A DNA stretch of 64,000 nt from an uncultured Planctomycetia bacterium (lineage in GTDB: Bacteria > Omnitrophota > Gorgyraeia > 1-14-0-20-64-10): contig CAZQXN010000002.1 in the NCBI GenBank assembly GCA_964597545.1, forward strand, positions 88,234 to 152,233, in the 5' to 3' direction. Below are positions 7,538-45,774 of this stretch, piece after piece; the stretch's first letter is position 1; each line of letters begins with the position of its first letter. The translations under genes and the position numbers were made by a program. The notes under the pieces were generated by a model. The model was not told the origin of the DNA and ran no database searches. It worked only from the letters and a program-made list of their open reading frames with translations.

Positions 7538-7559
7538 GAGACGAAGTTGCGATAAAATA

Positions 7560-11862: not shown

Positions 11863-11891
11863 TAAGCGGAATAATGTTAGGAGGTGTACGA

Positions 11892-29546: not shown

Positions 29547-30534
29547 GCTGGGTATCAGCTACTACGGAAACCGTATCCCTTGGCGCGTTCAGGAAGACCT
29601 CAGGGCCATTCAAGAGAGTGGGTGCACCTATGTGCTCCATACCTTCAGCGAAGAGGATGTGGAGTTTTACCAGGGGGCAGTGGCCGAGATTGCGGAGCTG
29701 ACCCGCAAAGCGGGCCTTAAGGTCTGGCTGGATCCCTGGGGGGTAGGGCAGATCTTTGGGGGGGAGACCTACTCCAATCTGATTGCCACCAACTTGTCGG
29801 TCCGGCAGATGAGTTCAGAGGGACAATCCCTTCCGATTGCCTGCATCAACCACCCGGCACTCAAGGAGTATCTCCACCACTGGATTACCGCTGCTGCCCG
29901 CGCAAAACCTGATGTTCTCTTTTGGGATGAGCCGCACTTTAAGATCTACCCCGAGCCTGGGGGGGCACCCCCCAAGACATGGGCCTGCCGCTGTCCCATT
30001 TGTGAGGCCCGATTTAAGAAGCTGACCGGCAGCGCCATGCCCAAGGAGTTTGACCCTCAGGTGCAGGCCTTTAAGGAAGACTCCCTGGTGGAGTTGACCC
30101 GGTGGCTGTGCGATGAGACCCGGGCGCGCGGCATCCGCCCGGCAGTGTGCCTGCTTCCTTTTGAGAACTCCTCTACCGTCAACGATTGGGAAAAAATAGC
30201 TGCCATTGACTCCCTGGAGATCATCGGCACCGACCCCTACTGGAAGCCGCATCAGCCTGAGGTGGACAAGCATGTGGGGCGTTTTTCCAAGCGGATTGCA
30301 GAGCTGGCCCGCCGGCATAAAAAGGAAGGACAGATCTGGATCTTGAACTTCAATATCCCCAAGGGAGAGGAGGGGACGATCCGCACCGCGATTGACGCTG
30401 CCTATCAAGAGGGGATCCGCAACTTCGCCGCCTGGAGCTATTATGGGGCCAGCTACATCCGGCTGCGGGCCGAAGATCCACCGGCAGTTTGGAAAACTCT
30501 GTCGGACTGCTACCACCAACTTAAGAAGCAATAG
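29536..30534 (+). CDS. Hypothetical protein (332 aa), possibly a TIM-barrel glycosidase-like fold. Function unknown.
   Basis: It sits in an operon-like position between nagA and the terminator hairpin. 'GLKVWLDPWGVGQIFGG', 'CRCPICEARF'. I recognise no diagnostic motif. Confidence 0.3.
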   Translation: MSLELGISYYGNRIPWRVQEDLRAIQESGCTYVLHTFSEEDVEFYQGAVAEIAELTRKAGLKVWLDPWGVGQIFGGETYSNLIATNLSVRQMSSEGQSLPIACINHPALKEYLHHWITAAARAKPDVLFWDEPHFKIYPEPGGAPPKTWACRCPICEARFKKLTGSAMPKEFDPQVQAFKEDSLVELTRWLCDETRARGIRPAVCLLPFENSSTVNDWEKIAAIDSLEIIGTDPYWKPHQPEVDKHVGRFSKRIAELARRHKKEGQIWILNFNIPKGEEGTIRTAIDAAYQEGIRNFAAWSYYGASYIRLRAEDPPAVWKTLSDCYHQLKKQ

Positions 30535-30717: not shown

Positions 30718-31920
30718 ATGAGGACGACTGAATTGGAAGCACACTCCCTGACAGAACGCGAACGCAAAAACGTATCCATCCTTGAAGCCATCAAGCGCTA
30801 CGGCCCTATTTCCCGAACAGACATTTCGAAGCTGACCAAGCTCAACATCGTCACGGTCTCCAACTACGTCAACAACTTCATCGAGCAGGGGATTGTCATT
30901 GAAAAGGGTTTGGACATCTCCTCCGGCGGTCGGCGCCCCACCATCGTGGTCCTCAACCCCAAGGCGGTCTATGTGGTGGGGGTGGATCTGGGTGTCTTTG
31001 TGGTGCGCACGGTCTTGGCCGACCTGGAGGGCAACGTCATTGCCCAGGCCGAGGCCCCCCGCCCCCGGGATACCGCAGATTCGGTGGTCCGGGTCTTGAC
31101 CGGCGAGATCGAGCGCGTCATTGCCCAGGCCGAGATCGACACCAAGAAGCTTAAAGGCATTCAGATCGGAGCTTCCGGGGTGATTGATCGTGAGGTCGGC
31201 ACCATCCGCTGCACCGAAGGGGTCGCCTCCATCTACGTTCCGATCACCGCCCTGCTCCAGGAGAAGTTCAAGCTGCCGGTCAAGCTCGAGCACGACGTCA
31301 CCACCGCTGCCTACGGGGAATGGTCCCTGGGGGCCGGCACCGATGTGGACATCATGCTCTTTATGTACTCCGGGGTAGGCTGCGGGATGATCATCAACGG
31401 AGAGATCTACCACGGCATCAGCGGAACGGCCGGAGAGGTGTCGATTCGAGATCAGCTGGATATCGGCGACGTCTGGATCGGCAACATCGCCGCCCTCAAG
31501 CCCTGGGCGGCCCATCTCGGGATTCCGGATGATGCCCGCGAGGCCCTGGAGAAGGGCGCGGTTTCCAAGATCTCGGAGCTGATTCAAGGGGATTTGGATA
31601 AGATCACGATCGAGACCGTCTTTGAGGCGGTCAAGGCCGGAGACAAAATCGCCACCGAAATCGTGCAGAAGGCCGGAGAGCGGCTGGGGGTGAGGATCTC
31701 CTTCTTGGTCAACCTCTTAAACCCCGGCGCCGTTGTGATCGGCGGCGGAGTCGAGGCCGCGGGTCCGGCTCTGATTGAGTCGGTCAAGAAGATGATCCGC
31801 CTGTGCGCCTTTGAAGAGATGGCCAATGCAGTCAAGGTAGTGCCCGCCCGCTTAGGCAACAACTGCGTTGCCCTGGGCGCTGCCAGCCTTGTGATTCGGG
31901 ACGTCTTCGCTTCGGTGTAA
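30718..31920 (+). CDS. ROK-family transcriptional regulator (NagC/Mlc-like: N-terminal wHTH plus ROK sugar-kinase-like domain)
   Basis: HTH 'ERERKNVSILEAIKRYGPISRTDISKLTKLNIVTVSNYVNNFIEQGIV'. ROK motifs 'VGVDLGVFVVRTVLADLEGNVI', 'IGASGVIDREVGTIR', 'GAGTDVDIMLFMYSGVGCGMIINGEIYHGISGTAGEVS', 'LGAASL'. Confidence 0.8.
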   Translation: MRTTELEAHSLTERERKNVSILEAIKRYGPISRTDISKLTKLNIVTVSNYVNNFIEQGIVIEKGLDISSGGRRPTIVVLNPKAVYVVGVDLGVFVVRTVLADLEGNVIAQAEAPRPRDTADSVVRVLTGEIERVIAQAEIDTKKLKGIQIGASGVIDREVGTIRCTEGVASIYVPITALLQEKFKLPVKLEHDVTTAAYGEWSLGAGTDVDIMLFMYSGVGCGMIINGEIYHGISGTAGEVSIRDQLDIGDVWIGNIAALKPWAAHLGIPDDAREALEKGAVSKISELIQGDLDKITIETVFEAVKAGDKIATEIVQKAGERLGVRISFLVNLLNPGAVVIGGGVEAAGPALIESVKKMIRLCAFEEMANAVKVVPARLGNNCVALGAASLVIRDVFASV

Positions 31921-32117: not shown

Positions 32118-34568
32118 ATGCAGTACGGACATTTCAGCTCAGATGGGCGCGAATACATCGTAACCCGCCCCAACACCCCCCGCCCATGGTTCAACTACCT
32201 CTTTAACGACGTCTACCACTGTTTGATCTCCCAGACCGGCGGCGGTTTTTCCTATTACCGGGATCCCAAGTACTATCGGGTCCATCGCTACGACCACATC
32301 AGCTCAGACCGACCCGGCCGCTACCTCTTCCTCAAGGATGTGACCAAGGGCTCGGCTGCGAAGGAGCCGATCTGGTCGCTCAACTGGCAGCCGTCCTGCA
32401 AGAAGCTGGACCGCTGGGAAGCGCGGCACGGCCTGGGTTACACCAAAATTTCCTCGACCCACAACGGCATCCAGGGAGAGATCACCTACTTTGTGGCCAA
32501 GGAGGCCCCGGTAGAGCTGTGGCTGGTCTCCTTGAAGAATGCCTCCAAGCGCAAGCGCACCCTCTCGGTCTATCCCTTTGTGGAGTTTGTCAGCGGCGAC
32601 GTGGCCCTGGAAACCCATTACCGGAACATCCTCTGCCTCTACAACGAGGCCGCTTTTGATCCCAAGTCCAAGGCGATTATCTCCTTCAAGCATCCCTTCA
32701 AGAAGGAGCACAAGCCGGGCTTCGCTTTCTTTTCAACCACGCTTCCCGTTGACAGCTGGGAGGCCCACCAGGAGCACTTCCTGGGTCCCTACGGCCACCG
32801 CTCTACTCCGAAGGGGTTGACCCAGACGCGCCTGGGCCGCCATGCCGTGCGCGGCGAGGACATGGTGGGTGTCTTCCAGAGCACCGTGACCTTGAAGCCC
32901 GGAGAGTCCAAGGAGTTCGCCGTGGTCTTAGGAATGACCGAGATGCGGGATGAGATCTCCAAGCACCTCAAGCATTTTCGCTCGGTGGAGCAGGTGCGCC
33001 GGGAGCTCGACTGCGTCCGGGAATACTGGAGAGAATCCTTGGAGTCGATCTGGGTTGACACACCGGACAAGGATTTCAATCTCATGGTCAATCTCTGGGG
33101 GAAATATCAACTCTTTGCCATTACCCACTGGCGGGGCACCTCCCATTACCACGGGGCCGAAGGGGGCCAGGGGTACCGCGACACCTGCCAGGATGTGGAG
33201 GGGCTCTTAAGCCTGGACACTCCCACCTCCCTGGAGAAGCTGGAGCGGCTGCTTTACTATCAGTACAAATCCGGCCATGCGGTCTCGGGGTTCTCCGAGG
33301 TCGAAGGCACTTGGGAGAACACCGGAGCAGCCGGGGTCATCAAGAAGGCAGATGTGGCGGTCTGGCTGCCCTACAGCGTCGTTGCCTACATCAAGGAGAC
33401 CGGGGACACCGATTTCCTTAAGAAAGAGATTCCTTTCCACGACACCGGATCAGCCACCGTCTATGAGCATGTGCTTCGCGCTGTGCGCTACCTCTACAGC
33501 GCCCGCGGCAAGCACGGCCTGCCCCTGATCGGTCACGCCGACTGGAACGATGCCTACGACCATGTGGGCGTCAAGGGCAAGGGTGAGAGCATCTGGCTTG
33601 GGATGGCGCTGGTTCGGGCCTGCAAGCAGGTGGCCGAGCTTGCCGAATTCATCAAGGATGAGAAGGTGGCCCAAGAGATGAAGGAAAAGGCCGAGGCCTT
33701 GACCCGCATTGTCAACCGGGAGGGATGGGAGGATTCCTGGTACCTGGCTGCCTTCAATGACGAAGGCCGAAAGATCGGCTCCAAGCAGAACAAAGAGGGC
33801 AAGGTACCCTTGAACTCCCAAACCTGGGCGATCCTCTCCGGGGTGGTGTCGCAGGAACGGCTGCCCAAGATCCTAGACCGGATTGACCGGACGCTGGGCA
33901 CCCCTTATGGGCCGGCTCTCTTCCTGCCCAGCTATACCGCCTTCAATCCCGGGATCGGGCGGGTGACCGCCTTTGCCGCCGGCACCAAGGAGAATGCAGC
34001 GGTCTTTTCTCATGCCTGCGCTTTCAAGGTGGTGGCTGACTGCACCATTGACCGCGGCGAGCAGGCGTACGACACCTTCGCGAAACTCATGCCCACTTCC
34101 AAGGCCAAACGGGACCACGACCGGTACAAGGTTGAGCCCTTTGTCTGGTCTGAGTATGTGATCGGCCCGGGCTCGGCAGATCGTTTCGGGGAAGGGGCCT
34201 TCACCTGGAACACCGGGACCACCCCCTGGATGTACAACGCCGCCACCGAGTGGATGCTGGGGGCCCGGCGGGAATTCAAGGGCCTCTTGATTGACCCCTG
34301 TTTGCCGAAGCGGTGGAAGTGGGCCAAGATCAAGCGTCCGTTCCGGGGGGCGACCTACGAGATCACCATACGCAATCCCGAAGGGGTGACCTCCGGGGTC
34401 AAGAAGCTTACCGTCGACGGTGTCGAGCAGGAGGATTGCCTGATCGAACCGCACGGAGACGGAGAGACCCATGAGGTTCAAGTGGTTTTAGGTCGCGCAG
34501 GCGGGAAAAACCGCCGCAAGAGGAATACCTCGACAGCTCGACAATCCGGTTTGTACCAAAGGGTCTGA
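32118..34568 (+). CDS. GH94-family glycoside phosphorylase (cellobiose / N,N'-diacetylchitobiose phosphorylase-like)
   Basis: N-terminus 'MQYGHFSSDGREYIVTRPNTPRPWFNYLFNDVYHCLISQTGGGFSYYRDPKYYRVHRY...GRYLFLKD' closely parallels the cellobiose phosphorylase N-terminus ('MRYGHFDD..REYVITTPHTPYPWINYLG...LSHQAGGYSFYRDAK..RLTRY...GRYLYV'). Its ~800-aa length fits. Substrate assignment to chitobiose is only suggested by the nag context. Confidence 0.8.
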   Translation: MQYGHFSSDGREYIVTRPNTPRPWFNYLFNDVYHCLISQTGGGFSYYRDPKYYRVHRYDHISSDRPGRYLFLKDVTKGSAAKEPIWSLNWQPSCKKLDRWEARHGLGYTKISSTHNGIQGEITYFVAKEAPVELWLVSLKNASKRKRTLSVYPFVEFVSGDVALETHYRNILCLYNEAAFDPKSKAIISFKHPFKKEHKPGFAFFSTTLPVDSWEAHQEHFLGPYGHRSTPKGLTQTRLGRHAVRGEDMVGVFQSTVTLKPGESKEFAVVLGMTEMRDEISKHLKHFRSVEQVRRELDCVREYWRESLESIWVDTPDKDFNLMVNLWGKYQLFAITHWRGTSHYHGAEGGQGYRDTCQDVEGLLSLDTPTSLEKLERLLYYQYKSGHAVSGFSEVEGTWENTGAAGVIKKADVAVWLPYSVVAYIKETGDTDFLKKEIPFHDTGSATVYEHVLRAVRYLYSARGKHGLPLIGHADWNDAYDHVGVKGKGESIWLGMALVRACKQVAELAEFIKDEKVAQEMKEKAEALTRIVNREGWEDSWYLAAFNDEGRKIGSKQNKEGKVPLNSQTWAILSGVVSQERLPKILDRIDRTLGTPYGPALFLPSYTAFNPGIGRVTAFAAGTKENAAVFSHACAFKVVADCTIDRGEQAYDTFAKLMPTSKAKRDHDRYKVEPFVWSEYVIGPGSADRFGEGAFTWNTGTTPWMYNAATEWMLGARREFKGLLIDPCLPKRWKWAKIKRPFRGATYEITIRNPEGVTSGVKKLTVDGVEQEDCLIEPHGDGETHEVQVVLGRAGGKNRRKRNTSTARQSGLYQRV

Positions 34569-34687: not shown

Positions 34688-36475
34688 ATGGTTGCTCATC
34701 CCAAACCCATACATCCCCGAGTGGGTTGTAGCCGAGCGGCTGCCGGGCTTGCGCTTCTTCTTGCCGGAGCATCCCTTGCTCTGGCAGCCCCCGAAGAGCC
34801 CCCCGCCACCTTCTGGGAGCGGCACGGCAAGGTTGAGGAAGAAAAACCCGCTTCCACCACCGCCACCGATTACCGCCCCCAGGGCCCGATTGAGCAGATC
34901 CCCTTAACCTTAGCCACCTTACGCATCCCCACCCAGCACGGCTCCTTAAAGCGTGACCATTCCGCACGGGAGCCGATCATCGTTCACATCCAGGATGCCC
35001 ATGCCAACTATGAAGCCCAGAAGCACCTGGCCGCGATCTTAGAGCACCTGATCCTCTCGCATGGCCTCTCCCTGGTTTTGGTGGAGGGGGGTTCCCGCAA
35101 CGACTCTCTTTCCTACATGCGCACCTATGCGCCTTTGCAGAAGCGGCGCGAGGTGGCAGAGGAGTTCTTAAAGGCCGGCAAGATCTCCGGCGAAAATTAC
35201 CTGGATTTGACCAGCGACTACGATTTCACCGTCTACGGCATCGAGCGGCCTGAGCTTTACGACGAGAACATGGAGGCCTTCTTCAATGTGGAGCGGGTCC
35301 AGAAGAGCGCTTTGGCGGCCATCTCAGGGTTCCGAGAGGCGGTCGCCACCCTCAAGACCCAGCTTTACCCCCAAGCGGTGCTGGATCTGGAGGCCAAGGA
35401 GCAGGAGGTCAAGGACGGCCTCATCCCCCTGGCCCACCATTACGAACAGCTTTCCAATGAGGCCAAAGGGGCAGGGGTGAAGGTGGATGAGGAGGAGCTT
35501 CCCAACTTCATGCGCTTCTTGAATGCCAGCCGCCTGGAGCGGGAGATGGACTTCAAGGCCGTGGAGGCGGAGCGGACCAAATTCCTGGAATCGCTCACCC
35601 GAACCTTACCCAAAGCAGAGATGGATTCCCTCCTGGATCAGAGCCTGGAGCTCAAGCGCGGCCTCATCACCCCCGCCTCGTTCTACGGGCACTTAAAGAG
35701 CTATTTCAAGCCCGAGGCGGAGGGGGACTACCCGGTCTTGACCCGCTACATCCGGTACCTGGAGCTTTTCGATGGGATCGACCACGCCGCCCTCTTCACC
35801 GAGGTTGAAACCCTGAGTGACAAGATCAAGATGAGCTACCTGAACAACCGTTCCCAGAAAAAGCTTTTCCAGGTGGCCAAGGATGTGGGGGTATTGGGAG
35901 ACCTGCTGGACCTGAAGCTGACCCCGGATGCCTATGAGTATTACCGCACCCACAAGCGGGAATTCAGGCCCGATCGCTGGGCCGACACCCTTCGGGGCCT
36001 GGGCAGGCGGCAGAAGCCCAAGCTCACCTTTGCCTTGACCCCGGGTCCCTTGAATGCCGCCATGCCGGCGATGTCGAGCTTCTACGAGGTGGCCCGCAAA
36101 AGGGACGAGGCGATGGTCGCCAACGCCTTAAAGCAGATCGAGGCCTTTGAGGTGCCCTTTGCCGTGCTGATCGCCGGAGGTTTCCACACCCCGGCCTTTG
36201 AGCGCCTCTTCAGAAAGAGCAAGGTTTCCTACGCGGTGGTGGCTCCCAAGGTGGGCAAGGTGACCGCCGCCGACACCGAGAAGTACCACCGGGTCTTAAA
36301 GGAGACCTATGTTCCGATGTCAGAGAAGTACCGCAAGAAGATGGGAGTTGCCCCTGTCGCCGCACCCCTGCGCGCTGCGCGTGAGACAGAGCCGATTTCC
36401 GGCGCAGGCGCAGTGACCTCAAGGCCGCCCACATCCTCGGAGGGCGTGGCAGTCGCCTTCGCCCCAGAGGAGTAA
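34688..36475 (+). CDS. Secreted hypothetical protein (595 aa) immediately upstream of the 3089-aa gene
   Basis: Signal 'AAAGLALLLAGASLALAAPEEP'. I recognise no catalytic motif. Confidence 0.35.
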   Translation: MVAHPKPIHPRVGCSRAAAGLALLLAGASLALAAPEEPPATFWERHGKVEEEKPASTTATDYRPQGPIEQIPLTLATLRIPTQHGSLKRDHSAREPIIVHIQDAHANYEAQKHLAAILEHLILSHGLSLVLVEGGSRNDSLSYMRTYAPLQKRREVAEEFLKAGKISGENYLDLTSDYDFTVYGIERPELYDENMEAFFNVERVQKSALAAISGFREAVATLKTQLYPQAVLDLEAKEQEVKDGLIPLAHHYEQLSNEAKGAGVKVDEEELPNFMRFLNASRLEREMDFKAVEAERTKFLESLTRTLPKAEMDSLLDQSLELKRGLITPASFYGHLKSYFKPEAEGDYPVLTRYIRYLELFDGIDHAALFTEVETLSDKIKMSYLNNRSQKKLFQVAKDVGVLGDLLDLKLTPDAYEYYRTHKREFRPDRWADTLRGLGRRQKPKLTFALTPGPLNAAMPAMSSFYEVARKRDEAMVANALKQIEAFEVPFAVLIAGGFHTPAFERLFRKSKVSYAVVAPKVGKVTAADTEKYHRVLKETYVPMSEKYRKKMGVAPVAAPLRAARETEPISGAGAVTSRPPTSSEGVAVAFAPEE

Positions 36476-36504: not shown

Positions 36505-39500
36505 GTGAAACGACAACAGAGTGGTTGTGCGCGCCGATTGATTTCCGCACTTACAATCCTTTCCTTTATCTTTACACAAGCTGTTCCGGCGTGGGCACTG
36601 CGGCCGACGCAAGAGGAGGCCTCGCCACGCGCCTCTGCGCTGCGGGAGTCCCAGGAAGACAAGACCCTTCTTCAACTGCGCCAGGCCTTGTTTCAAGTAG
36701 GACGCTTTTTCCGACCGGCTTCAGCCTCCCCCGCGACAGGATTGGAGGAGACTCTAAGGGTCGCAGCCTCCATTCATCCACCCATTACCCTGCGAATCGG
36801 TGCGGATAGAATCTCCACCCTTCATGCCGGCCGCCACACCCGTGTTGAGCGTGGAGATTGCGGTTGTTTTGTCCGGGTGGGAAAGCCGCAGAGCCAGGGG
36901 GGGCTTGATCCCAATGAACTGGTTTTGACCGCGGCTCGGGCTTTGGAGCCCCGCGGCTATCAATCGGCCAGCGCCGGGGTCATTACGCTTGGAGATGATC
37001 CCAGCTTCGACGTTCGCAAGGTACTCGGAGGTGCGGATGAGTTGGAGCCGATCCTTAGCGGACATCCCCTGCCGGATGGCGGCGTGCAATTGGTCCACCT
37101 TCGGTGGCCGACAGAGGGAAAGCCTTCAGAGGATAACCAGCATCCCACCATCATTCGGCCGGATCAGACCAACCCGGCCGAGGTCGAGTTCATCTTTAAT
37201 GGGGACATCACGAACTTTCGGGAGATCGATGATTTTCTGGCGGAGCACGGTATTCACCGGCCCAGCGGCGTGGAGACCGATGCCTGGTCGGCAGCGGCGC
37301 TGATCTGGTACTACTTCCAGCTGCCCTCTGAAGAGCAGATTTCGGGCAGGGCCAAGGCAATCTACATGAGGGATCGGATCGAGGGCAGGGATAAAGAGAA
37401 TTGGGAACAGGCCGCAGAAGAGCTTAAGGCCGAAGGAGTTCACATGCCTTTGCTGGAGGCGGTTCATCTGGCCTATGGTCGCCTGGAAGGGGACTTCGCC
37501 CTGATCGCAGTTTCCGAGAAGGAGCCGGGCAAGGCCATCGGCGCTCTCAAGGGACAGAAGCCCCTTGTGGCGGGGCGGGGTCAAGATGCCGAAACCGGAA
37601 ACTTCCTTGCCTCAGAGGCCTCCACCTTCATTGATTATACCGACCAGAATCAAACCCTTCAGTCGGGAGACATCGTGGTGCTCACGCAGGATGAGGTGAC
37701 CTTTTATCGCCGGAGGGAGGAGGGTCACCCGGGCAGGTTGGCCTTGGAGGTGATCCCCCCCGAGGAGCGCCCCATTCAACCGCTTGATATTGAAGAGGTG
37801 AAGGTGAGCAAGGTGTTCCGGGGCAGGGAATTCTCAACCTTTACCGAGAAGGAGGTTGCTGAGGGAGGGGAAGCCATACGCAGAACCATAGAGCATCAGG
37901 GTCGACTCCCTGTCCTGCGGGACCGGATTGAGGGCCGCGCAGAGCCGATGCCCGGATTGAATCTTACGGATGAAGACTGGCGAAAGGCCCGCGGACTTCT
38001 TCTGGTTGCCATGGGAACGGCCAACTATGCTGCGGAAGCGGCTGCCCCTCACCTGTTCGGCGATCTGGCTCTGGGGGGGGATTCTCCGGAGCCTTTTTCC
38101 GTGCGCGTTGAAACCGGCACCACTCTCTTCGATGTCTTAAGGGCTCAGATTCTCACGCTTGTCCGCCGGTCCGATCCAAACGTGAGGCAGCCAACCGACT
38201 TAGACGGCTGGGTGGCACTGATTAAGCAGCACCAAGGCGGTGCGCTCAAGCCCCTGTTTGCTCAATACCAAGGATTCATCGGAATTGCCGTCAGCCAGTC
38301 CGGCAACACCATGGATACCAACCAGATTGTGATCTTGCTTCAGGCGCTCGGGGTTCGCTTCATTGGGGTGGTGAACAAGCCGATCGATACACCCCTGCCC
38401 CGGTTGACCAAGGAGGATGGAGGGCTCTTTAGAACCAAGGCCGGGGCAGAGATGGGTGTGGCCTCGACAAAGGCCTTTGTCGCGCAAGTGATTGCGCTCA
38501 GACTCATCTCTGTCTATGCGGGTCTGGTCCGGGAGACCCTCCCCCCGGATGAGGCCGCCATGCAATTGGGGGCAATCCACAACCTGCCCGGCATTGTTGA
38601 GAAGTGGCTTGCAGACCCGAGCAAGCAGGAAGCGATCCGGAGGATTGCCCGCTTGCTCGCCAATCAGCAGACCTTGATGTTTCTTTCCCGCGGAGTGCAG
38701 GTTCCCGTCTCCAAGGAGGGGGCGCTGAAGCTGCTTGAGCTGGCTTATCTGTTTACCGTGGGGATGGATGCCGCCTTGATGAAACACGGTTTTATCGCCT
38801 ATTTCCCTGAGTCCCGGGACCCAGCTTTCACTAAGTTTGCTGTGGCGATTTTGACGGACCGGGTCAGCTTAAAGGAAACCTTGACCAATCTGAGTGAGGC
38901 TCGGAGCCGTTATGGACATGTGGTGGGCATCGCCTTTGAGAGCGACCGCGCAGAAGTGCTTCCTCACGTCGATGATCTCATCACCATCCCCGATGTTCCC
39001 GATGAGTTGGCCGCCATCGTAGGCGTTTTGCCTCTTCAAGCTTTGGCTGTTGAAACCACCAAGCGGATCAACAGAACCGGGGAGAATCTTGCTGCTTGGG
39101 CGGAGATGCTCTATTGGAAGCTCCGACAGTTGGAAACCGGAGTCAGCGGGGTTACTCAGCAGGAGCTTTTCAAGACCGCAAAGAGTGTTTTAGAACATTA
39201 CAGCCGGTTTACAGATGACGGACGCCTCGAGCTGCTGCCCACCGCCAAGACGCGTCAGGTTTACTACCTGATCAAGGCCGCGGTTGAGGCGGGAGAGCAG
39301 GGAGAGTATTCACAGATGGAGGCGGGTGTCCGGGATGCAATCCGCGCCCTTCGAGGACAGAGCCTCTCTCTGATCATGTTTTTTGATCATGAACTGGCCC
39401 GTCTTGCAGCCCCTGATCAGGATGAGTCGGATGCCATTCTGACGGCGCAAGAGCGGGCACAGGTGGTCCGTATCATGGGAGATGTTTCCTTCGAGGAGGG

Positions 39501-42500
39501 GAATACCCCCTCCGAAGTGCTCAAGAAGCTTTCGGCAGATCTGGCTGTCTTCTACAGCCAGGCGGTCAGCCGGGGTAGCACCATGAAGGGGCGGTGGAGG
39601 GATTGGCGGTTTAACAAGGGGCTGGGTACATTCCTTGGACGGGATCTGGATAAGCCCCGAGGGCTGGCCAAGGAGGTGACCGTGGATCTGCTTGAAGCGG
39701 ATCTGCGGAGCCAATTGGCCAACCTGGGGGTTCCGGAGGATCAGCTGGATACCACATTCCTCGGTCTTCAGGAGTTGCTGCCGGGGGGACAGATTCATGA
39801 GCAGCCCGGGGTACTGAAGGTTGTTGCTCGGCTTTCAGGTGTCCCTGAGGGAACGCTGCGCCGCCGAGCCATGATGCATGAACAGGCCCACCAGATATTG
39901 CGCCGGGCCGCCCCATCGCAGGATCTGCTTTGGGCCGTGCATCAGGCGGTTGAGGCGGCCGATCTCAGGCGCGTCGAGGAAGATCCCCGCTCCTTCGTCC
40001 CTTTTCAAGCCGCCTTCGAAAAAAGGTTTCGCGGCGGCCACTTTCCCACACGGCAGAAGTTTCTTGAGGAGCTGGTGGCCAAGTACGCCCTTGCCCGACT
40101 GACCGGCACTGCAGAAACGCGCTATGCGCAGGTCGCCCCGGAGATGGAGCAGCTCTTCAACGGCACGAATCTTGATTGGCTGCCTGATGTGAAGGAGGCA
40201 TTGGCGGCTGATCTGGGCATTCCTGCGGAGCGGATGGATCAAGCGGGCATGATGCCCGGGACCTTTGGCCAGCTTTTTGATCCCAGCTTCCGCCCAGAGT
40301 GGGACCAGCGGGCTTCCACTGCCACCCCGGAGGTGATCAAGGCCAGGCAGATGAGCCGGCTGGGGCGAGCACTCGGTTTACAACCGGGGTTGGGGTGGGA
40401 CGCCAGAGAGATGCGGCTCCAGAGATCATTGGCCCGTTACGACCGCGCCCTGCGGACAGCGGCTCCGATTCCAAAGGTCGACCCCGCTGTTCAGGCGGGC
40501 CAGGAGGAGGGGGGGCTCGTTGTTTTCGAGGTGGGCGAGGTCGCCCTGGACAACGAGGTTCGCTACACCCCAGCGAAGCGTTACGCAGATCGACAGTACA
40601 GGCTGGACCGCGCTTTGATGGATATGGTCCGTCCTTGGTTGGAGGCGATTGGGGCGGAGATCAGCGTCAAGTATGGCGATTCTTTGGCCAGGAGCTGGAG
40701 ACACCCGCAGCCTTCCGGCTCTGATCAGAGGCGCTTCTTTAGACTGGAACGGGGAGATGCAGTTGCAACCATCGCTCCGGCCTATCGAGGCCCAATGGCA
40801 GCAACGGCTCATCGGATCTTGCTGGTTGCTGTCAAGGATTCCCCTCAGGAGCCAACGCGCTACTGGCTGCTGCCTTCGGACAGCCGCCTCCAGAACAGAT
40901 TGCAGCGGCTCGCAGGGCATTTCCTGAAGGGCGAGCCCATTCCGGGGCCCCTGCTGTCCGGCTTCCTCTCCCCAGAGCTTCGGTTCGCAACCGATGTTCT
41001 TGATGCCGCAGCGGAGCGTTTCATCCAGCTTCAGTGGGAGCATTCCGAGGAGGTGAGACTCACCTTTGGCGATGCGATCCCCGGGCCCCAAGCGAATCAG
41101 ACCACCCTTTTCATCATAGGACCGCGCCATTCGCACGGCATGCTTGATGCCTTGACGACACCATTGAATCCGGACCATGCGGATCTGAATATCTCAGCGT
41201 CTCGTTCGATCGATAACGTTGCCGCCTTTCCCTTTGATTTCTGCTACGTTGTTGTCGACGCACCCCCGGAGCAGTTGCGGCAGCCGCGCGACACCTTAGA
41301 CGGACAGAGCGTTCTGGGTGCGATTCGAGAACGGGTTGATACCTTGAACCGCTTACGAACCCCTCAAGCACTTCCTGTAAAGCCCGCCACTTCATCTCCG
41401 CCAGCCGTGACTGCCGGCGGCCTGGAGGAGCTGGTTGTAGGGCGGGACTATGCGGATGCTCGGCACGTTGCGGGAATCCAATTTTTGCAGGCTGTCCAGC
41501 TCAGCGGCCGCACGCGGCTTGGCAGCGGGATCTATCTGGATCCCACCCATGGAGGGCAATTTCCGGATGCGGTGATCACGATCGGCGAAGGAACGGTTCT
41601 CTTTGATAATGCCAAGCTCTACGGCCCCATGGTCATTGGCAGAAGTGCCGAGGTCGGCGGGATTCTGGCGGGGACCGCCGAGAGTCCCCTGATTGTCGGC
41701 GCGGGAGCCACGATTCACCGATCGAACGCCGACGTTAAACGAAGTGTTATCGGGCCGGAGGCCGTGGTGGATGGAGCCGACATCGCCGATTCGACTGTGG
41801 TGCCGTTTCTGCGGGGAGTTCGGATTATTGCTCCGGCCGCGGCGGACACCGGCGCTGTTCTGGAGGGAGGCGCAGTTGCCTTCGGAGGGACTGTCGGGAC
41901 CCACGTCAAGCTACGGCGCCATTCGGTGGTAGGCCCCTTTGCCGCATTGGGCAATGCATCAGAGCACAAAGGGGTGGTTTTCATCGGGGCGACCCCGGAT
42001 GCCAATATTGAATTCCCCCATGCCGGTTTTACCGCATCGCTCATGGCGACCGCATTTCTCCCTGAAGGAGATCCGGGTTCCAAGGCGTATTACGACTCTT
42101 ACCGGCAGACCCTTCGGGCGGTGATGTTTGGCGAGTTGGTTGATGCGCGAAAAGCCGACCTCCCATCCCGCTCACCGGTGTCTGGCTCGGGTGCCGCGTG
42201 GCAGTTGGTCTACGCGGTGGATGATTCGGACGTTTCCTTCATGGCGATCCGAGATAACTTCGGGGCTTTTACAGCCGTCAGTGACTACAATTCGTTCACC
42301 GGAGAGAAATCCGGCTCCACCGCCGAAGGGGGAACGGCAACCGGAGTCCACTCGGCTCTGAAGGCCCCAGTTGCGCTGCGCCACCTGATTGCCGTTGGCA
42401 ATCTAAGCCAGGCCACAGGGGATGTGGCCGCCGGGACGCTGACTGCGGGGACGGATCAATTCACCCTTCCGGAATACCGCAGCCTCGAGAGGCCCTTTGC

Positions 42501-45500
42501 CCTCGGCAGTCACTTTGACCAGGATGTGGCTGTTCAGATGGATTACTTCAGGCGGCTTCAAGTGATGGCCGAGGTATTCCTGGAGGGCGCTCAGCGGGCG
42601 CAGGATCCATTTACCTTGGCCGGTTTTACGGCCTCCCTTGAGGCGGTTCGAGGCCAATACCAGGAGCTGGGTCCGCGGTTTCGCAAGGCGCTGGAAGGGG
42701 GCCTGGACCGCACCATTGAAGCGGTTACCGCCAGGATTCAATCTGTCTCCTCTGACGAAGGGGAACGCCTCGGTGAGCGGCTGGATCGCTTCAAGCAGGT
42801 TGTTGAGGGCAGGCCTCAAGTCATTTCCGAGCTAGAGACCATCGGTGAGGCCATCGGCAGCGCTGCCGACGCTGTTGCGCCCGCCACCCAAGCGTCCATT
42901 GCCCAGGCGGTTGTCCAGCAGACCATTAATCCCGGCTCTGTCTGGGTCAATCCGCTGGCTGCCTCCGGTCTGGAGGAGGAGCCGCTGGATAAGGTGATTG
43001 AGCATCTGCTCGCCGTCCCGGCCGGACTCTCCATCCAGAACCCTCAGGCTTATTGGCTTGAGCAGATGGCGGCGGCTCAGGTGAGCGACCTTGATTCGCT
43101 GGAGGTTTTTTTGTCGGATAGGGCAGTTCCGAATGATGCCCTGGATTTCCAACAGCGGCAGCGTTTGCTGGATCTTCTGGACAACTACGACGCCCTCCAC
43201 CAGGTTTTCCGGGTGAACATGGAGATGAGCCGCCTAGAGACGGTCAATCTGATCCTGGCCCAGGCGCAAGCCAACGATTCAACGTTCGCGCAGGAGGTCC
43301 GGGGCGTTCTGGATGTTCCGGATTCCGCGCTGCCCACCGGCGGCGAGCTTGAGGAGATCATCCGTTTGGCCGAGGTGCTGATTGAAGCCGGCGGCAACAG
43401 CGCCCGGGCAGTCCGGGAGATGGCCCGGGCGGCCCAACGGGTTGCCATCAGCGAAACCCCGGTCCATGACGACGGCGGCAACTACGGCAAGTGGCGCTTC
43501 TTGCTGGAGGAGCTCTTTGGCCGGTTTCTGGTTTCATTGGGAGGGGACCTTGCCAACCACCGGACCGTGGAGCCGACACATTTGATTCGGCAGGTCATGG
43601 CCGACCGGCTCCCGCAGAAGGGAACGGAGGCCTGGACCGATGCCGATACCCCTCGATCCCTTCTGATCAAGGAGATCGCCACCGCCTTTGCTTCTTACCG
43701 GCTTCAGCACGGTGAGCCGGATTTTTCAGAGGAAGCGTTCCTGGTGCGGACGCTGGCCAGCTTGATCTCCGCGCACCGGATCTTAAGCAGCGCCTTCCCT
43801 GACATCCTGGAAACCAAAGTCCTCTCCAAGGCAAGCAGCCAGAATGTAGCCGGTGTGGCGGTCGCGCTGCGCTCCGGCTTCCTGGTTCCGCAGACGCAGA
43901 CGGTCAACCCCGAGCAGCTTGCCAGAGCCCTTCTTCTCTGGAACCGTCTGTTGGGGTTGTCCAAGCGGGACGGGATGGTGCTGCCGGCGACCCTGGACGG
44001 GGCACGGCTCTATTTTGTCTACTCGGATCGCCTCGCGGCGGAGGAAGCGTCTCCAGAGGGTGTTGTAGAGTCCATTCGGCTGGGAGATGCCGAGATCGAT
44101 CCAAACGATTACTTCGTCCTTGCGCTGCCCGGCAAGAGCCTGGTCTTGACCGATGGATTGGGCCGGCGGCTGCAGTACGAGGCGGGTGAGCGCGCCTATG
44201 TCGCTCGAGAAGACGGCGAAATAGTCAACCGCTTCGAGGCGTTTCCCGCCCAGATCAGCAAGGCGATCCACCAGCGGCTCAGAACGGTCGATGAGATCTC
44301 CCTGGTTCGCGGGGAGGACCACGCCAGCGAAGAAGACACCCTCTACAAAGATGCCCAGGTCATCGCCTGGGGGGCAGAGTTCCCCTACAGAGCTCTGCCT
44401 CAGGCAAGCCCTGTTTCGCAGCGGCTGTATCAGGCGATTCTGGACGGTGAAACGCAAATGGAGACCATCGTCTTTGGACCCGGCTCTGAGGGTACCTCCA
44501 TCGCACCCCTCTTCTGGCGTCGAGAAACAGTGGAGTTTCTCCGGCAGCTTGCTAAGCGCAGGAGGGATGGCAGGCGGGTACCCAGGGCGGTCTTCATCTT
44601 CAATCCAACCGAGACCAACGACTCCTTTGGCCTGGGGGTTGAAGGGCAGATCCGCAACCACGAGATGATCATGCGCGAGGTCCTCAAGGATGAGACAGTT
44701 CAGTTTGAGGAGCTCTTTCCGGAGATCCTGCTCTTTGACCACACCGATCCCTGGGTGACCGCACCGAACCCGGCGGTGGCCAAGGAGATGGAGCAGATCA
44801 CAGGCAAACCGGTTGCGCCTGAGGATGTGGATTATGCTCGGATTCTCGGCCCTTCAGCGGATGAGGAGGCGGCCGGAGTGATGCACGGCCGCGTCAAGAA
44901 AAACCGCCGGCCGCTCCCTGTTGACGATGCGCTCATCCAACGACTCAGAGATCGGTTCGAGGCGGCCGGAGGAAAAGTCCATCTGGCTCCCTTTGCCGAT
45001 GTTCGGGCAACGGTGGAGTCCAGCCGGGGCAAGATCTCCATTGAGGCACGCGTGCAGGCCATCACCCACCGAGCGGCTCCCATACTCTTTCCAAAGAGCA
45101 GGGACCTTCTGCTTCAGGCCGCTGTCCGGCAAGAGGGCCGGATCTACGAGCAGAAGCACGGAACGCTCCCAGCCCCGCAGCAGCTGGCAGAGTTCCTCAA
45201 CAAGTTCGGGTATGAGACAAATGCCGACGAGGTTGCTGCCATCGCCGCCGGCCAGGAGGAGGCGGATCTGCTTGTCAGTGAAGCCATCGCCTCGGGCCAG
45301 CTTGCCGCCCAAGATTTCTACGCCAAGCCCAGTTCCGCGGGGGGGACCACCTACGTGGTCCCGGTTCCGGCCCGGCAGGAACCAGCCCCCATGGAGCTGT
45401 GGTGGCAGGCCGGCCTTGAGGAGCCCAAGACAGTACCCCCTCACACACGGAAGATCCTCTACGCTGCCACCCTCGCCGCAGCCATAGCTCAGCGCAACGA

Positions 45501-45774
45501 TCAGCCCCCCGCAGAGAACGCCCGATTTGTCCTCAATGAAGCTGTTGCCGGGGGCAACCCGGCCCTCTGGCTGCCGAGCCGGCATCCTCTGCCACCCTCC
45601 ATCACCCTGACCGAGGAGCTTTCCATTCAACTGGTGGCCTCTGCGCAGGAGTTTCCCCGGACCATTGCCCTTTTGCTGGATTTGGCCGAGAAGGCCGGCA
45701 TGACGCTTCGGATCAACGCGCTCCGTTTCTTCACGGTGGAGAATCAGGTCTATGCCATCGTGACAGCGACGTAA
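36505..45774 (+). CDS. Giant secreted multidomain protein (3089 aa). It has a signal peptide and the conserved post-signal module. It embeds a full-length diverged GlmS-like region (GATase-II-like plus two SIS domains) at ~36859-39110 and a left-handed beta-helix at ~41521-42030. Recurrent G-L/Q-E-E linkers punctuate it.
   Basis: Single uninterrupted frame. N-terminus 'RRLISALTILSFIFTQAVPAWALRP..RASALRESQ'. See the domain features below. Confidence 0.7.
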   Translation: MKRQQSGCARRLISALTILSFIFTQAVPAWALRPTQEEASPRASALRESQEDKTLLQLRQALFQVGRFFRPASASPATGLEETLRVAASIHPPITLRIGADRISTLHAGRHTRVERGDCGCFVRVGKPQSQGGLDPNELVLTAARALEPRGYQSASAGVITLGDDPSFDVRKVLGGADELEPILSGHPLPDGGVQLVHLRWPTEGKPSEDNQHPTIIRPDQTNPAEVEFIFNGDITNFREIDDFLAEHGIHRPSGVETDAWSAAALIWYYFQLPSEEQISGRAKAIYMRDRIEGRDKENWEQAAEELKAEGVHMPLLEAVHLAYGRLEGDFALIAVSEKEPGKAIGALKGQKPLVAGRGQDAETGNFLASEASTFIDYTDQNQTLQSGDIVVLTQDEVTFYRRREEGHPGRLALEVIPPEERPIQPLDIEEVKVSKVFRGREFSTFTEKEVAEGGEAIRRTIEHQGRLPVLRDRIEGRAEPMPGLNLTDEDWRKARGLLLVAMGTANYAAEAAAPHLFGDLALGGDSPEPFSVRVETGTTLFDVLRAQILTLVRRSDPNVRQPTDLDGWVALIKQHQGGALKPLFAQYQGFIGIAVSQSGNTMDTNQIVILLQALGVRFIGVVNKPIDTPLPRLTKEDGGLFRTKAGAEMGVASTKAFVAQVIALRLISVYAGLVRETLPPDEAAMQLGAIHNLPGIVEKWLADPSKQEAIRRIARLLANQQTLMFLSRGVQVPVSKEGALKLLELAYLFTVGMDAALMKHGFIAYFPESRDPAFTKFAVAILTDRVSLKETLTNLSEARSRYGHVVGIAFESDRAEVLPHVDDLITIPDVPDELAAIVGVLPLQALAVETTKRINRTGENLAAWAEMLYWKLRQLETGVSGVTQQELFKTAKSVLEHYSRFTDDGRLELLPTAKTRQVYYLIKAAVEAGEQGEYSQMEAGVRDAIRALRGQSLSLIMFFDHELARLAAPDQDESDAILTAQERAQVVRIMGDVSFEEGNTPSEVLKKLSADLAVFYSQAVSRGSTMKGRWRDWRFNKGLGTFLGRDLDKPRGLAKEVTVDLLEADLRSQLANLGVPEDQLDTTFLGLQELLPGGQIHEQPGVLKVVARLSGVPEGTLRRRAMMHEQAHQILRRAAPSQDLLWAVHQAVEAADLRRVEEDPRSFVPFQAAFEKRFRGGHFPTRQKFLEELVAKYALARLTGTAETRYAQVAPEMEQLFNGTNLDWLPDVKEALAADLGIPAERMDQAGMMPGTFGQLFDPSFRPEWDQRASTATPEVIKARQMSRLGRALGLQPGLGWDAREMRLQRSLARYDRALRTAAPIPKVDPAVQAGQEEGGLVVFEVGEVALDNEVRYTPAKRYADRQYRLDRALMDMVRPWLEAIGAEISVKYGDSLARSWRHPQPSGSDQRRFFRLERGDAVATIAPAYRGPMAATAHRILLVAVKDSPQEPTRYWLLPSDSRLQNRLQRLAGHFLKGEPIPGPLLSGFLSPELRFATDVLDAAAERFIQLQWEHSEEVRLTFGDAIPGPQANQTTLFIIGPRHSHGMLDALTTPLNPDHADLNISASRSIDNVAAFPFDFCYVVVDAPPEQLRQPRDTLDGQSVLGAIRERVDTLNRLRTPQALPVKPATSSPPAVTAGGLEELVVGRDYADARHVAGIQFLQAVQLSGRTRLGSGIYLDPTHGGQFPDAVITIGEGTVLFDNAKLYGPMVIGRSAEVGGILAGTAESPLIVGAGATIHRSNADVKRSVIGPEAVVDGADIADSTVVPFLRGVRIIAPAAADTGAVLEGGAVAFGGTVGTHVKLRRHSVVGPFAALGNASEHKGVVFIGATPDANIEFPHAGFTASLMATAFLPEGDPGSKAYYDSYRQTLRAVMFGELVDARKADLPSRSPVSGSGAAWQLVYAVDDSDVSFMAIRDNFGAFTAVSDYNSFTGEKSGSTAEGGTATGVHSALKAPVALRHLIAVGNLSQATGDVAAGTLTAGTDQFTLPEYRSLERPFALGSHFDQDVAVQMDYFRRLQVMAEVFLEGAQRAQDPFTLAGFTASLEAVRGQYQELGPRFRKALEGGLDRTIEAVTARIQSVSSDEGERLGERLDRFKQVVEGRPQVISELETIGEAIGSAADAVAPATQASIAQAVVQQTINPGSVWVNPLAASGLEEEPLDKVIEHLLAVPAGLSIQNPQAYWLEQMAAAQVSDLDSLEVFLSDRAVPNDALDFQQRQRLLDLLDNYDALHQVFRVNMEMSRLETVNLILAQAQANDSTFAQEVRGVLDVPDSALPTGGELEEIIRLAEVLIEAGGNSARAVREMARAAQRVAISETPVHDDGGNYGKWRFLLEELFGRFLVSLGGDLANHRTVEPTHLIRQVMADRLPQKGTEAWTDADTPRSLLIKEIATAFASYRLQHGEPDFSEEAFLVRTLASLISAHRILSSAFPDILETKVLSKASSQNVAGVAVALRSGFLVPQTQTVNPEQLARALLLWNRLLGLSKRDGMVLPATLDGARLYFVYSDRLAAEEASPEGVVESIRLGDAEIDPNDYFVLALPGKSLVLTDGLGRRLQYEAGERAYVAREDGEIVNRFEAFPAQISKAIHQRLRTVDEISLVRGEDHASEEDTLYKDAQVIAWGAEFPYRALPQASPVSQRLYQAILDGETQMETIVFGPGSEGTSIAPLFWRRETVEFLRQLAKRRRDGRRVPRAVFIFNPTETNDSFGLGVEGQIRNHEMIMREVLKDETVQFEELFPEILLFDHTDPWVTAPNPAVAKEMEQITGKPVAPEDVDYARILGPSADEEAAGVMHGRVKKNRRPLPVDDALIQRLRDRFEAAGGKVHLAPFADVRATVESSRGKISIEARVQAITHRAAPILFPKSRDLLLQAAVRQEGRIYEQKHGTLPAPQQLAEFLNKFGYETNADEVAAIAAGQEEADLLVSEAIASGQLAAQDFYAKPSSAGGTTYVVPVPARQEPAPMELWWQAGLEEPKTVPPHTRKILYAATLAAAIAQRNDQPPAENARFVLNEAVAGGNPALWLPSRHPLPPSITLTEELSIQLVASAQEFPRTIALLLDLAEKAGMTLRINALRFFTVENQVYAIVTAT
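36859..39110 (+). other. GlmS-like (glutamine--fructose-6-phosphate aminotransferase-like) region inside the giant protein: a degenerate class-II glutaminase-like domain followed by two SIS domains
   Basis: 'CGCFVRVG' (cf. N-terminal CGIVG), 'LEPRGYQSASAGVI' (cf. 'LEYRGYDSAGLAV'), 'LVHLRWPTEGKPSEDNQHP' (cf. 'IAHTRWATHGEPSEANAHP'), 'IFNGDITNF' (cf. 'VHNGIIENH'), 'IAVSQSGNTMDT' (cf. 'SQSGETADT'), 'GVASTKAFVAQV' (cf. 'GVASTKAFTTQL'), 'KEGALKLLELAYL' (cf. 'LEGALKLKEISYI'), 'PLQALAV' (cf. 'PLQLLAY'). Several catalytic positions are substituted (T to E in 'WPTEG', E to N in 'SQSGNT'). Confidence 0.65.
41521..42030 (+). other. Left-handed parallel beta-helix (hexapeptide-repeat, acyltransferase-like) domain inside the giant protein
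   Basis: 'VITIGEGTVLFDNAKLYGPMVIGRSAEVGGILAGTAESPLIVGAGATIHRSNADVKRSVIGPEAVVDGADIADSTVV' shows the [LIV]-G-x-x-x-x periodicity. Confidence 0.5.

Follow-up and report, generated by a model that had tools for sequence, protein, structure and literature searches.

We analysed a 64,000-nucleotide (nt) stretch of contig CAZQXN010000002.1 (assembly GCA_964597545.1, positions 88,234 to 152,233), hereafter the window, from an uncultured bacterium of the Omnitrophota lineage. One of its long open reading frames, ORF A, encodes a leader-bearing multi-module protein of 3,089 amino acids (aa), in which a full-length homolog of glucosamine-6-phosphate (GlcN-6-P) synthase, GlmS, is embedded with its catalytic cysteine at an internal position, residue 119. 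GlmS is a textbook class-II amidotransferase whose nucleophile is bared by removal of the initiator Met alone. Three things are firm: the homology to GlmS, an active site that is intact, and a Cys that is internal throughout the family. The cleavage mechanism, the enzyme activity, the pathway role and the cell compartment are inferences. Sequence conservation makes it probable, in our judgement, that aa 119-1061 constitute an active glutamine-dependent GlcN-6-P synthase module that matures by cleavage in cis.

A full-length GlmS homolog embedded in ORF A

ORF A starts with GTG, with GGGAGG 7 nt 5′ of the start, and its GlmS homolog runs from Cys119 (36859) to Asp1061 (39687), 943 aa in all (Table 1). 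E. coli GlmS aligned collinearly with this module from Cys1 through the C-terminal tail, and in a MAFFT alignment of the module with seven canonical GlmS enzymes Cys119 fell on Cys1 while LDKPRGLAKEVTVD (aa 1048-1061) fell on the GlmS C-terminal VDQPRNLAKSVTVE. ORF A matched the NCBIfam models NF001484 (E = 2e-87, 294 bits) and TIGR01135 (E = 1.1e-76, 258.7 bits), as well as a hidden Markov model (HMM) that we built from canonical GlmS sequences (E = 1e-89). The E. coli GlmS structure 2j6h matched in three collinear stretches spanning the glutaminase and isomerase halves (E = 8e-33), and the isomerase part was additionally recognized by Pfam SIS (E = 9.5e-10).

An AlphaFold2 model covering aa 84-1075 had a mean predicted local distance difference test (pLDDT) score of 77, exceeding 85 over most canonical parts, including the greater part of the glutaminase domain. 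The best Foldseek matches of this model among PDB structures were full-length human GFAT-1 and E. coli GlmS, the latter (2j6h_A) with E = 1.6e-36, a target TM-score of 0.84 and 750 aligned columns. A first-pass annotation of this DNA had proposed a near full-length GlmS homolog of ~750 aa at 36859-39110 and had called for a structure prediction. The HMM, MAFFT and Foldseek results bear out the embedded homolog and make it fully full-length: the predicted structure matches whole GlmS/GFAT structures, and the alignment spans Cys1 to the C-terminus instead of being confined to the SIS domains. The proposed extent was too short, as position 39110 marks the last SIS helix and leaves out both a 189-aa insertion and the catalytic C-terminal tail.

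Expansion relative to E. coli GlmS is due mainly to insertions of 39, 27 and 189 aa, the last lying just before the tail, with further insertions of 6-39 aa after E. coli residues 13, 89, 137, 232, 266, 307, 328, 341 and 515. The 189-aa insertion, modelled as helical with low to moderate confidence, recurs in the relatives P0049, P0050, P0052, P0053, P0054 and P0057 (described below), and is a sequence hallmark of an expanded GlmS subfamily. Beyond the GlmS tail, 2,028 residues of ORF A chain continue. No second, canonical copy of glmS was found in the 64-kb window: tblastn with an E. coli GlmS sequence that agrees with the PDB alignment matched ORF A alone.

Active-site residues and relatives of the module

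Alignment-based mapping of 22 GlmS residues showed that 20 are kept in ORF A. In the glutaminase half, C1, R26, R73, W74, T76, H86, N98, G99 and D123 correspond to C119, R150, R200, W201, T203, H213, N232, G233 and D259; in the isomerase half, T302, S347, Q348, S349, T352, S401, K485, E488, H504 and K603 correspond to T505, S597, Q598, S599, T602, S654, K742, E745, H761 and K1056. The two changes are H77 to E204 and S303 to A506. All eight residues that the first-pass annotation had singled out for mapping (C1, R26, W74, N98, G99, E488, H504 and K603) thus have their equivalents. With its catalytic residues intact, the module is apparently a functional GlmS, as far as sequence can tell.

Relatives of the module came from two sources, an exhaustive HMMER search of 1.84 billion representative proteins and synteny extending from a neighbouring gene for a GH94 disaccharide phosphorylase. 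The HMMER search yielded the closer relatives P0049, P0050, P0051, P0052, P0053, P0054, P0055, P0057 and P0087. Nearly all mapped residues are also kept in P0049, P0050, P0052, P0053, P0054, P0055 and P0057, whose identity to the window module is 34-53%. P0049 (2,084 aa) carries the same leader and is 53% identical to ORF A over the leader and the whole GlmS module; P0053 and P0055 reach 3,018 and 6,232 aa. All named family members belong to Candidatus Omnitrophota, and their database labels read 'SIS domain-containing protein', 'hypothetical protein' or an automatic GlmS name. A word search of 5.8 billion proteins returned canonical GlmS of 600-650 aa only and no close relatives of the module, and a scan of GTDB genomes for close relatives by word index and 8-mer patterns found none. 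One match from a metagenome scan, L001 (33 residues within a 215-aa ORF), was judged spurious.

The order GH94, a 595-aa protein of no known family and a leader-bearing giant gene is conserved in at least 11 relatives. BLAST with ORF A detected no GlmS module in the giants at these syntenic loci, but profile searches found one in all 11 that were tested (NCBIfam models in 9 of 10, our own HMM in all). In three divergent members, L006, L009 and L010, a ~360-aa insertion separates GlmS residues 50 and 60. The same three have Trp in place of Q348 and Asn, Arg or Trp in place of H504 and retain the glutaminase residues, a pattern suggesting that isomerase chemistry may be changed or lost in this sub-clade.

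The limits of the functional unit are marked by P0052, a stand-alone and complete 992-aa gene inside a 29-kb contig. This leaderless protein starts MLILCDDDHAG/CGVF (here and below, a slash marks a bond at which cleavage is considered) and ends NLAKVVTVK followed by a stop codon; these ends indicate that the unit extends from the Cys to the VTV[EDK] tail, and that even the unfused form, with its 11-residue extension, needs N-terminal processing. Gene arrangements among the relatives place the module in a metabolic context. P0053 joins it in one chain to a catalytic domain of glutamine synthetase, the enzyme that makes its substrate, the gene after P0054 encodes PGM_PMM_I and AMG1_III domains, and the gene after P0052 encodes hexapeptide-repeat and PGM/PMM domains. 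Through the domains that they bring together, these three independent arrangements link the module with the synthesis of amino-sugar nucleotides and with glutamine supply, in keeping with a GlmS, GlmM, GlmU logic.

The catalytic cysteine is internal

Class-II amidotransferases use an N-terminal Cys as nucleophile (PMC7948480). Cys119 of ORF A, in the context R-G-D-C-G-C-F-V-R-V-G, is internal to the primary translation product, since no ATG, GTG or TTG directly precedes its codon. An internal start that would place Met before Cys119 is ruled out: codon 118 is GAT, and the nearest in-frame starts are codons 80 (TTG) and 125 (GTG). The internal position of the Cys, in the CGCFVRVG context noted in the first-pass annotation, was upheld, the exact residue being 119.

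This arrangement is family-wide. A Cys-Gly start together with the R26 motif lies at internal positions, from 12 to 1229, in about 18 family proteins (one further assignment, L004, is uncertain). The stretch translated ahead of the Cys measures 118 residues in the window protein and between 11 and 1,228 in relatives. Immediately before the Cys stands Asp in eight cases, another Cys in six and otherwise a small residue: G-D precedes it in the window protein, P0049, P0050, P0053, P0054 and L003; S-D in L005 and L014; G-C or W-C in L006, L008, L009, L010, L012 and L041; and A-G, G-A or A-S in P0052, P0055, L013 and P0057. The pro-region between leader and Cys varies in sequence among orthologs except for its last residues, [VE]xxG-D, and aa 84-117, directly ahead of the bond to Cys119 in the modelled segment, are disordered in the AlphaFold2 model (pLDDT < 35).

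Two upstream features might have been taken for the activating cut. The first-pass annotation had named sites of the GLEE type, but the GLEE of the pro-region (aa 79-82) lies 36 residues upstream of Cys119, and the corresponding distance in relatives amounts to hundreds of residues, which rules it out as the event that exposes the Cys. A signal-peptidase-type site, A-W-A (between aa 31 and 32), is 87 residues away. Because both are too distant, neither can yield an N-terminal Cys119, and it is the Asp118–Cys119 bond that must break.

The conserved context G-D/C-G or G-C/C-G points to self-cleavage at this bond, by which Cys119 would be exposed. Self-cleavage is favoured by that conserved context together with the precedent of PurF propeptides. 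In glycosylasparaginase, an Asp preceding the nucleophilic Thr helps self-cleavage, and the conserved Asp before the Cys recalls it. In the PurF branch of the class-II amidotransferases, 'all eukaryotic and many microbial' enzymes have an autocatalytically cleaved propeptide, and Arabidopsis GPRAT2, when produced in E. coli, is processed so that Cys87 becomes its N-terminus (PMC7056826); cleavage of this PurF type is listed as occurring in cis for MEROPS family C44 (PMC3207474). The dilemma posed in the first-pass annotation, that the domain is either inactive or exposed by proteolysis, was thus a proper one, and the evidence favours proteolysis: 20 of 22 residues are kept, Cys-Gly is conserved, and one relative is fused to glutamine synthetase.

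We propose the following sequence of events. The module would be made as part of a precursor, with its nucleophile behind a signal-peptide-like leader and a pro-region of 85 residues, and the glutaminase would become active once the Asp118–Cys119 bond is broken and Cys119 acquires a free alpha-amino group. The likeliest route would be intramolecular (cis) self-cleavage by the Cys thiol, as in propeptide-bearing class-II amidotransferases of the PurF type. In the matured module, glutamine would be hydrolysed and the ammonia passed to fructose-6-phosphate (Fru-6-P) in the SIS domains, yielding GlcN-6-P, with the K1056-bearing C-tail closing the SIS-domain active site. GlcN-6-P might then be taken up by neighbouring modules, mutase-like ones and hexapeptide-repeat (acetyltransferase-like) ones, on the way to a product of the UDP-GlcNAc type.

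A candidate zincin domain and a border motif

A ~270-aa domain with an HExxH motif directly follows the GlmS tail (Table 1). Nine relatives share its H, E, E and Y without exception, and seven of the nine also have the second His, which P0055 and P0057 lack; neither the stand-alone P0052 nor any of the divergent syntenic giants has such a domain. In structure the domain comes closest to PPEP-3, PPEP-2, lethal-factor domains and MtfA, consistently but at weak scores (Z ≤ 6.1), and a word-index search with the domain gave no matches. It resembles the lethal factor (LF)/PPEP/MtfA zincins (M34-type gluzincins) in combining HExxH with a downstream Glu and Tyr. We regard it as a candidate zincin of this kind, which might free the C-tail of the GlmS module.

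The HExxH domain ends on a motif, [AGST]-G-[LQ]-E-E, that recurs through the long proteins of the window. It occurs 23 times in the 11,619 aa of the five leader-type ORFs (8..4141, 4229..7537, 36505..45774, 45821..61009 and 61032..end) and not once in ten ordinary neighbours, a ~26-fold enrichment over the shuffling expectation of 0.87 (maximum 5 in 2,000 trials). The Gly, Leu and Glu codons of the motif vary synonymously, Glu roughly at background frequencies; this rules out a nucleotide signal, such as an internal Shine-Dalgarno GGAGG plus start, and identifies [AGST]-G-[LQ]-E-E as a protein-level signal. The motif stands at module borders: at both ends of the hexapeptide-repeat module of ORF A, at the ATP-grasp, GHMP-like and HAD-like modules of the second giant, ORF B, and at the end of the HExxH domain, where it is conserved in P0049 and P0051. 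In L003 it comes directly after the GlmS tail (…VTVE-TGLEE). Proteins of this class may use the motif as a processing site, or it may be a signature of their linkers.

A conserved N-terminal leader

The N-terminus of ORF A looks like a Sec signal peptide by hydropathy and motif. Its hydrophobic stretch (aa 12-30, 19 aa) has a mean Kyte-Doolittle value of 1.64 and is the sole such segment outside folded domains. Leaders of the same type occur in ORF B, in the ORF at 61032 and in the syntenic giants of at least 11 relatives, where the pattern reads …LTILSFTxTQAxPAWALRP…[AG]GLEE. More widely, the N-termini at 36505, 45821, 61032 and 4229 and those of loci L003-L014 share a well-conserved leader, composed of a basic stretch, a hydrophobic stretch ending …LTILS.T.TQA.PAWA/LRP or …AFA/EPK, then 20-50 residues and GLEE. 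Such conservation is above that of usual Sec signal peptides and suggests a dedicated targeting or processing system. Among long Omnitrophota proteins, multi-enzyme metabolic ones included, 94% have a predicted signal peptide or transmembrane helices (bioRxiv 10.64898/2026.06.07.730766).

A secretion signal is plausible from the sequence, yet the chemistry of the fused modules depends on ATP and glutamine, and the two conflict. Possible resolutions are that the leader acts as a tether or is removed before export, that the modules act in a substrate-rich foreign cytoplasm, or that the prediction is wrong.

Weighing the alternatives

Several points weigh against an active, self-cleaving GlmS. 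Both curated models score below their cut-offs (294 against 381 bits for NF001484, 258.7 against 418.05 for TIGR01135) because of the insertions and divergence, so that by the strict annotation rule the module is a divergent, expanded GlmS relative and no equivalog. H77 and S303 are substituted in ORF A itself, and Q348 and H504 are replaced in the divergent syntenic orthologs L006, L009 and L010. The non-terminal C-tail, 189 residues from SIS2, could impair lid closure unless the chain is cut or the insertion accommodated, and the leader predicts export to where glutamine, Fru-6-P and ATP would be lacking. We know of no previous description of a propeptide-bearing GlmS, and the structural model, with its pLDDT below 35 in the pro-region, is uninformative at the scissile bond. 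If the glutaminase were indeed never unblocked, the module might work without glutamine, as an ammonia-dependent aminotransferase, a deaminase or sugar-phosphate isomerase like NagB-II, or a binding or regulatory scaffold. The internal Cys of every fused form would fit this, as would the scores and the loss of Q348 and H504 just mentioned, a weak NagB-II match over the SIS part (NF046059, E = 1e-7) and an otherwise catabolic locus (GH94, nagA, nagB and an ABC transporter). But relatives of only 34-53% identity have kept the complete set of glutaminase residues, together with the ammonia-channel Trp and the Cys-Gly start, which would be unexpected for a dead domain; the AlphaFold2 model superposes on the closed full-length enzyme, and in one relative the module is fused to a glutamine synthetase domain. 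We consider a permanently blocked module improbable.

Cleavage of the Asp118–Cys119 bond in trans, by a separate or embedded protease and without self-cleavage, appears to us similarly unlikely. The candidates would be the lethal-factor-like HExxH domain that follows the module, or an enzyme recognizing [AGST]-G-[LQ]-E-E whose product is trimmed by an aminopeptidase. West-Roberts et al. proposed that protease domains cut the giant proteins of Omnitrophota (bioRxiv 10.1101/2023.11.21.568195), and both candidates have some appeal, as the HExxH…E…Y domain directly follows the GlmS tail in seven of nine fused close relatives (it is absent from P0052) and the G[LQ]EE motif is strongly enriched and stands at module borders. 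However, P0052 has an internal Cys with neither a zincin domain nor a preceding GLEE motif, the divergent syntenic giants lack the HExxH domain, two of the relatives that have it lack its second His, its fold match is weak, and the residues that do precede the Cys (GD, GC, AG, AS, GA) are unlike the GLEE motif. Self-cleavage in cis is also compatible with a further possibility, doubtful but to be taken seriously: that the whole protein is exported through its Sec-type leader and the GlmS module acts in the periplasm, at the cell surface or in a host or prey cell, where a delivered module could serve as an effector diverting host Fru-6-P and glutamine. Such export would be consistent with the basic n-region, h-region and AXA site conserved on several long ORFs here and in relatives, with the prevalence of predicted signal peptides and transmembrane helices among long Omnitrophota proteins, and with the description of Omnitrophota as host-dependent or predatory (PMC10066038; bioRxiv 10.1101/2023.11.21.568195). 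Against it, the substrates required are cytoplasmic: GlmS needs glutamine and Fru-6-P, and the glutamine synthetase, ATP-grasp, ROK-kinase-like and GHMP-kinase-like modules need ATP. The leaderless stand-alone homolog P0052 and the marginal hydrophobicity of the leader (1.64) also speak against export.

Relation to known systems

The module shares the architecture and fold of GlmS/GFAT (TIGR01135, NF001484), with an N-terminal-nucleophile (Ntn) glutaminase, two SIS domains and a C-tail. It differs in having its Cys at residue 119 instead of directly after the initiator Met, in its insertions, in a tail that continues into further domains and in being embedded in a 3,089-aa leader-bearing protein. 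To our knowledge, self-cleavage has not been shown for any GlmS. The nearest parallel is the propeptide-bearing PurF (MEROPS C44, with B. subtilis PurF and Arabidopsis GPRAT2), likewise a class-II amidotransferase with residues before the catalytic Cys; in AtGPRAT2, Cys87 is exposed by cis-cleavage behind a targeting peptide (PMC7056826, PMC3207474). PurF has a phosphoribosyltransferase as its second domain, whereas the ORF A module has SIS domains and belongs to a different branch of the superfamily. Known PurF propeptides are short or lie behind organelle transit peptides, whereas here the Cys follows an extension of 118 aa (in relatives as much as 1,228 aa), which may hold folded domains.

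ORFs A and B also resemble the multi-enzyme long proteins described in the same phylum, in which cutting is suspected (bioRxiv 10.1101/2023.11.21.568195; bioRxiv 10.64898/2026.06.07.730766) and which combine many sugar-metabolism domains per chain (ROK-kinase-like, HAD-like, PGM-like) with an N-terminal signal-like segment. With GlmS, HExxH and hexapeptide-repeat modules in ORF A and ATP-grasp, GHMP-like and HAD-like modules in ORF B, both combine several unrelated enzyme domains with an N-terminal leader, the latter recognized by its hydropathy. The giant proteins of Omnitrophota measure 10-147 thousand aa, whereas the ORFs here measure 3-5 thousand aa and come from a high-GC lineage. Text searches of both preprints returned no GATase, SIS or amidotransferase term and no mention of an embedded GlmS, an internal Ntn Cys or the [AGST]G[LQ]EE border motif; 'glmS' appears in bioRxiv 10.64898/2026.06.07.730766 only in a KEGG pathway count.

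The new elements are a clade of GlmS proteins whose conserved nucleophile is obligatorily internal, an insert of 189 aa ahead of the catalytic lid, and fusion into leader-bearing multi-module proteins. If self-cleavage holds true, it would extend PurF-type self-processing to GlmS, in a phylum-restricted clade, and would provide the first concrete, sequence-defined cleavage site in an Omnitrophota long protein; the literature on Omnitrophota giant genes poses it as an open question whether such proteins are cut or work as single chains. The family also offers naturally occurring GlmS variants in which a helical insert of 189 aa lies in front of the catalytic lid. That family members are fused to glutamine synthetase, mutase-like and hexapeptide-repeat modules hints that synthesis of the UDP-GlcNAc type may be channelled in these ultra-small bacteria, which depend on hosts.

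A bolder extension, which we offer tentatively and think rather unlikely as a whole, is that the central amino-sugar enzymes of high-GC Omnitrophota are made as metabolic polyproteins, cut by Ntn self-cleavage at G-D/C-G, by the embedded zincin and by a motif-directed activity. The Ntn cut would both free and activate GlmS, the lethal-factor-like zincin would release its C-tail, and a dedicated activity would act at the border motif. Were it true, a virus-like strategy would operate in bacterial core metabolism, and the leader might send modules outside the cytoplasm or into prey.

Further modules and the locus neighbourhood

Table 1. Features of the locus, in order along the window (positions in nt of the window; residues are those of ORF A)
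Feature	Position	Strand	Residues	Details
nagB, GlcN-6-P deaminase	15860..16627	+		TIGR00502, 330.7 bits (cut-off 236.9)
nagA, GlcNAc-6-P deacetylase	28344..29546	+		TIGR00221, 283.9 bits (cut-off 225.65)
ROK-family regulator with helix-turn-helix (HTH), NagC/Mlc-like	30718..31920	+		Pfam ROK and HTH_24; NF047937 NagC E = 7e-53, below curated cut-off
GH94 disaccharide phosphorylase (chitobiose/cellobiose phosphorylase family)	32118..34568	+		Pfam catalytic E = 4e-99, supersandwich E = 9e-64
595-aa partner protein, no known family	34688..36475	+		Own N-terminal hydrophobic segment
ORF A	36505..45774	+	1-3089	Open frame of 3,089 codons; leader-bearing multi-module protein holding the GlmS module
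N-terminal leader	36505..36603	+	1-33	Basic n-region, hydrophobic LISALTILSFIFTQAV, then PAWA/LRP; Sec-signal-like
Pro-region	36604..36858	+	34-118	Has T-G-L-E-E (aa 78-82; GLEE = 36739..36750); ends R-G-D
Codon of Cys119 (TGC)	36859..36861	+	119	Equivalent of catalytic Cys1 of GlmS; aligned with Cys1 of seven canonical GlmS
Class-II (Ntn) glutaminase domain	36859..37806	+	119-434	E. coli 1-239; 39-aa insertion at aa 274-312
Isomerase part, two SIS domains	37834..39066	+	444-854	E. coli 249-590; SIS1 insertions of 13 aa and 27 aa
Helical insertion, 189 aa	39067..39633	+	855-1043	Alignment gap after E. coli residue 590; between last SIS helix and C-tail
GlmS C-terminal tail	39634..39687	+	1044-1061	Ends LDKPRGLAKEVTVD; K1056 = K603; not at chain end
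HExxH domain, ~270 aa	39688..40497	+	1062-1331	H1125-E1126-x-x-H1129…E1189…Y1194; ends A-G-Q-E-E (aa 1331-1335)
Hexapeptide-repeat (left-handed beta-helix) module	41419..42966	+	1639-2154	Between G-G-L-E-E and S-G-L-E-E
ORF B	45821..61009	+		5,062 aa; second leader-bearing multi-module protein

Downstream of the HExxH domain, ORF A carries a hexapeptide-repeat module, in which aa 1659-1761 match NCBIfam GlmU/EpsC at E of about 3e-3; Pfam Hexapep matches at E = 0.011. The syntenic giant in L014 has a segment with 40% identity to the module, and the match ends on both flanking motifs. Its beta-helix is of the kind found in the C-terminal part of GlmU and in DUF4954; to the DUF4954 protein of the window it shows weak similarity only (E = 0.008). 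ORF B contains weakly matching, motif-bounded modules of ATP-grasp, GHMP-kinase-like and HAD-IIB-like type (NCBIfam RimK family, 7e-5; galactokinase, 3e-7; HAD-IIB, 1e-3), and its first 3,050 residues have no Pfam or NCBIfam match. The remainder of ORF A, of ORF B and of the other long ORFs gave almost no Pfam or NCBIfam matches. Two of those other ORFs, 8..4141 and 4229..7537, end in near-identical ~185-aa C-terminal domains (3590..4141 and 6990..7537; LEELITIAEDTIN…LIVAA), each after a GLEE-type motif; this shared domain may reflect a recent duplication, or a common targeting or anchoring module.

Upstream of ORF A, the GH94 gene is 59-76% identical to genes from metagenome-assembled genomes of Candidatus Omnitrophota, some of whose records are labelled 'uncultured Planctomycetia'. 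The 595-aa protein between GH94 and the giant has homologs of 61-72% identity in the same syntenic position in 16 relatives, and another upstream of P0054. In P0057 and P0055 the homologous domain is fused N-terminally to the GlmS module, a fusion that implies a functional link between the two. The locus further holds an ABC sugar transporter.

The first-pass annotation had placed the module next to nagA and nagB and had seen a paradox in synthesis beside breakdown of the same metabolite. Neither point stood: nagA lies 7 kb and nagB 20 kb upstream of the module, so that the genes are in its neighbourhood only, and a NagC-like ROK regulator lies between them and the module. In E. coli, the nag genes and glmUS are alike under the control of NagC. 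To have genes for synthesis and breakdown together in one regulated neighbourhood is therefore the usual regulatory logic. A nagB directly beside nagA was sought in the ORF at 29536..30534 and in antisense ORFs, which match no family; the actual nagB is the distant gene listed in Table 1. The ORF at 29536..30534 (332 aa), upstream of the ROK regulator, shares its first 11 nt with the end of nagA, and neither Pfam nor NCBIfam gave a match to it.

Immediately 3′ of nagB, a DUF4954 hexapeptide-repeat protein is encoded at 16661..18622. Secreted-looking proteins with carbohydrate-binding-module domains resembling CBM30, CBM11 and CBM9 are encoded at 7527..12599 and 26974..28266, and an ABC permease in the region of these proteins carries an inserted CBM30-like domain.

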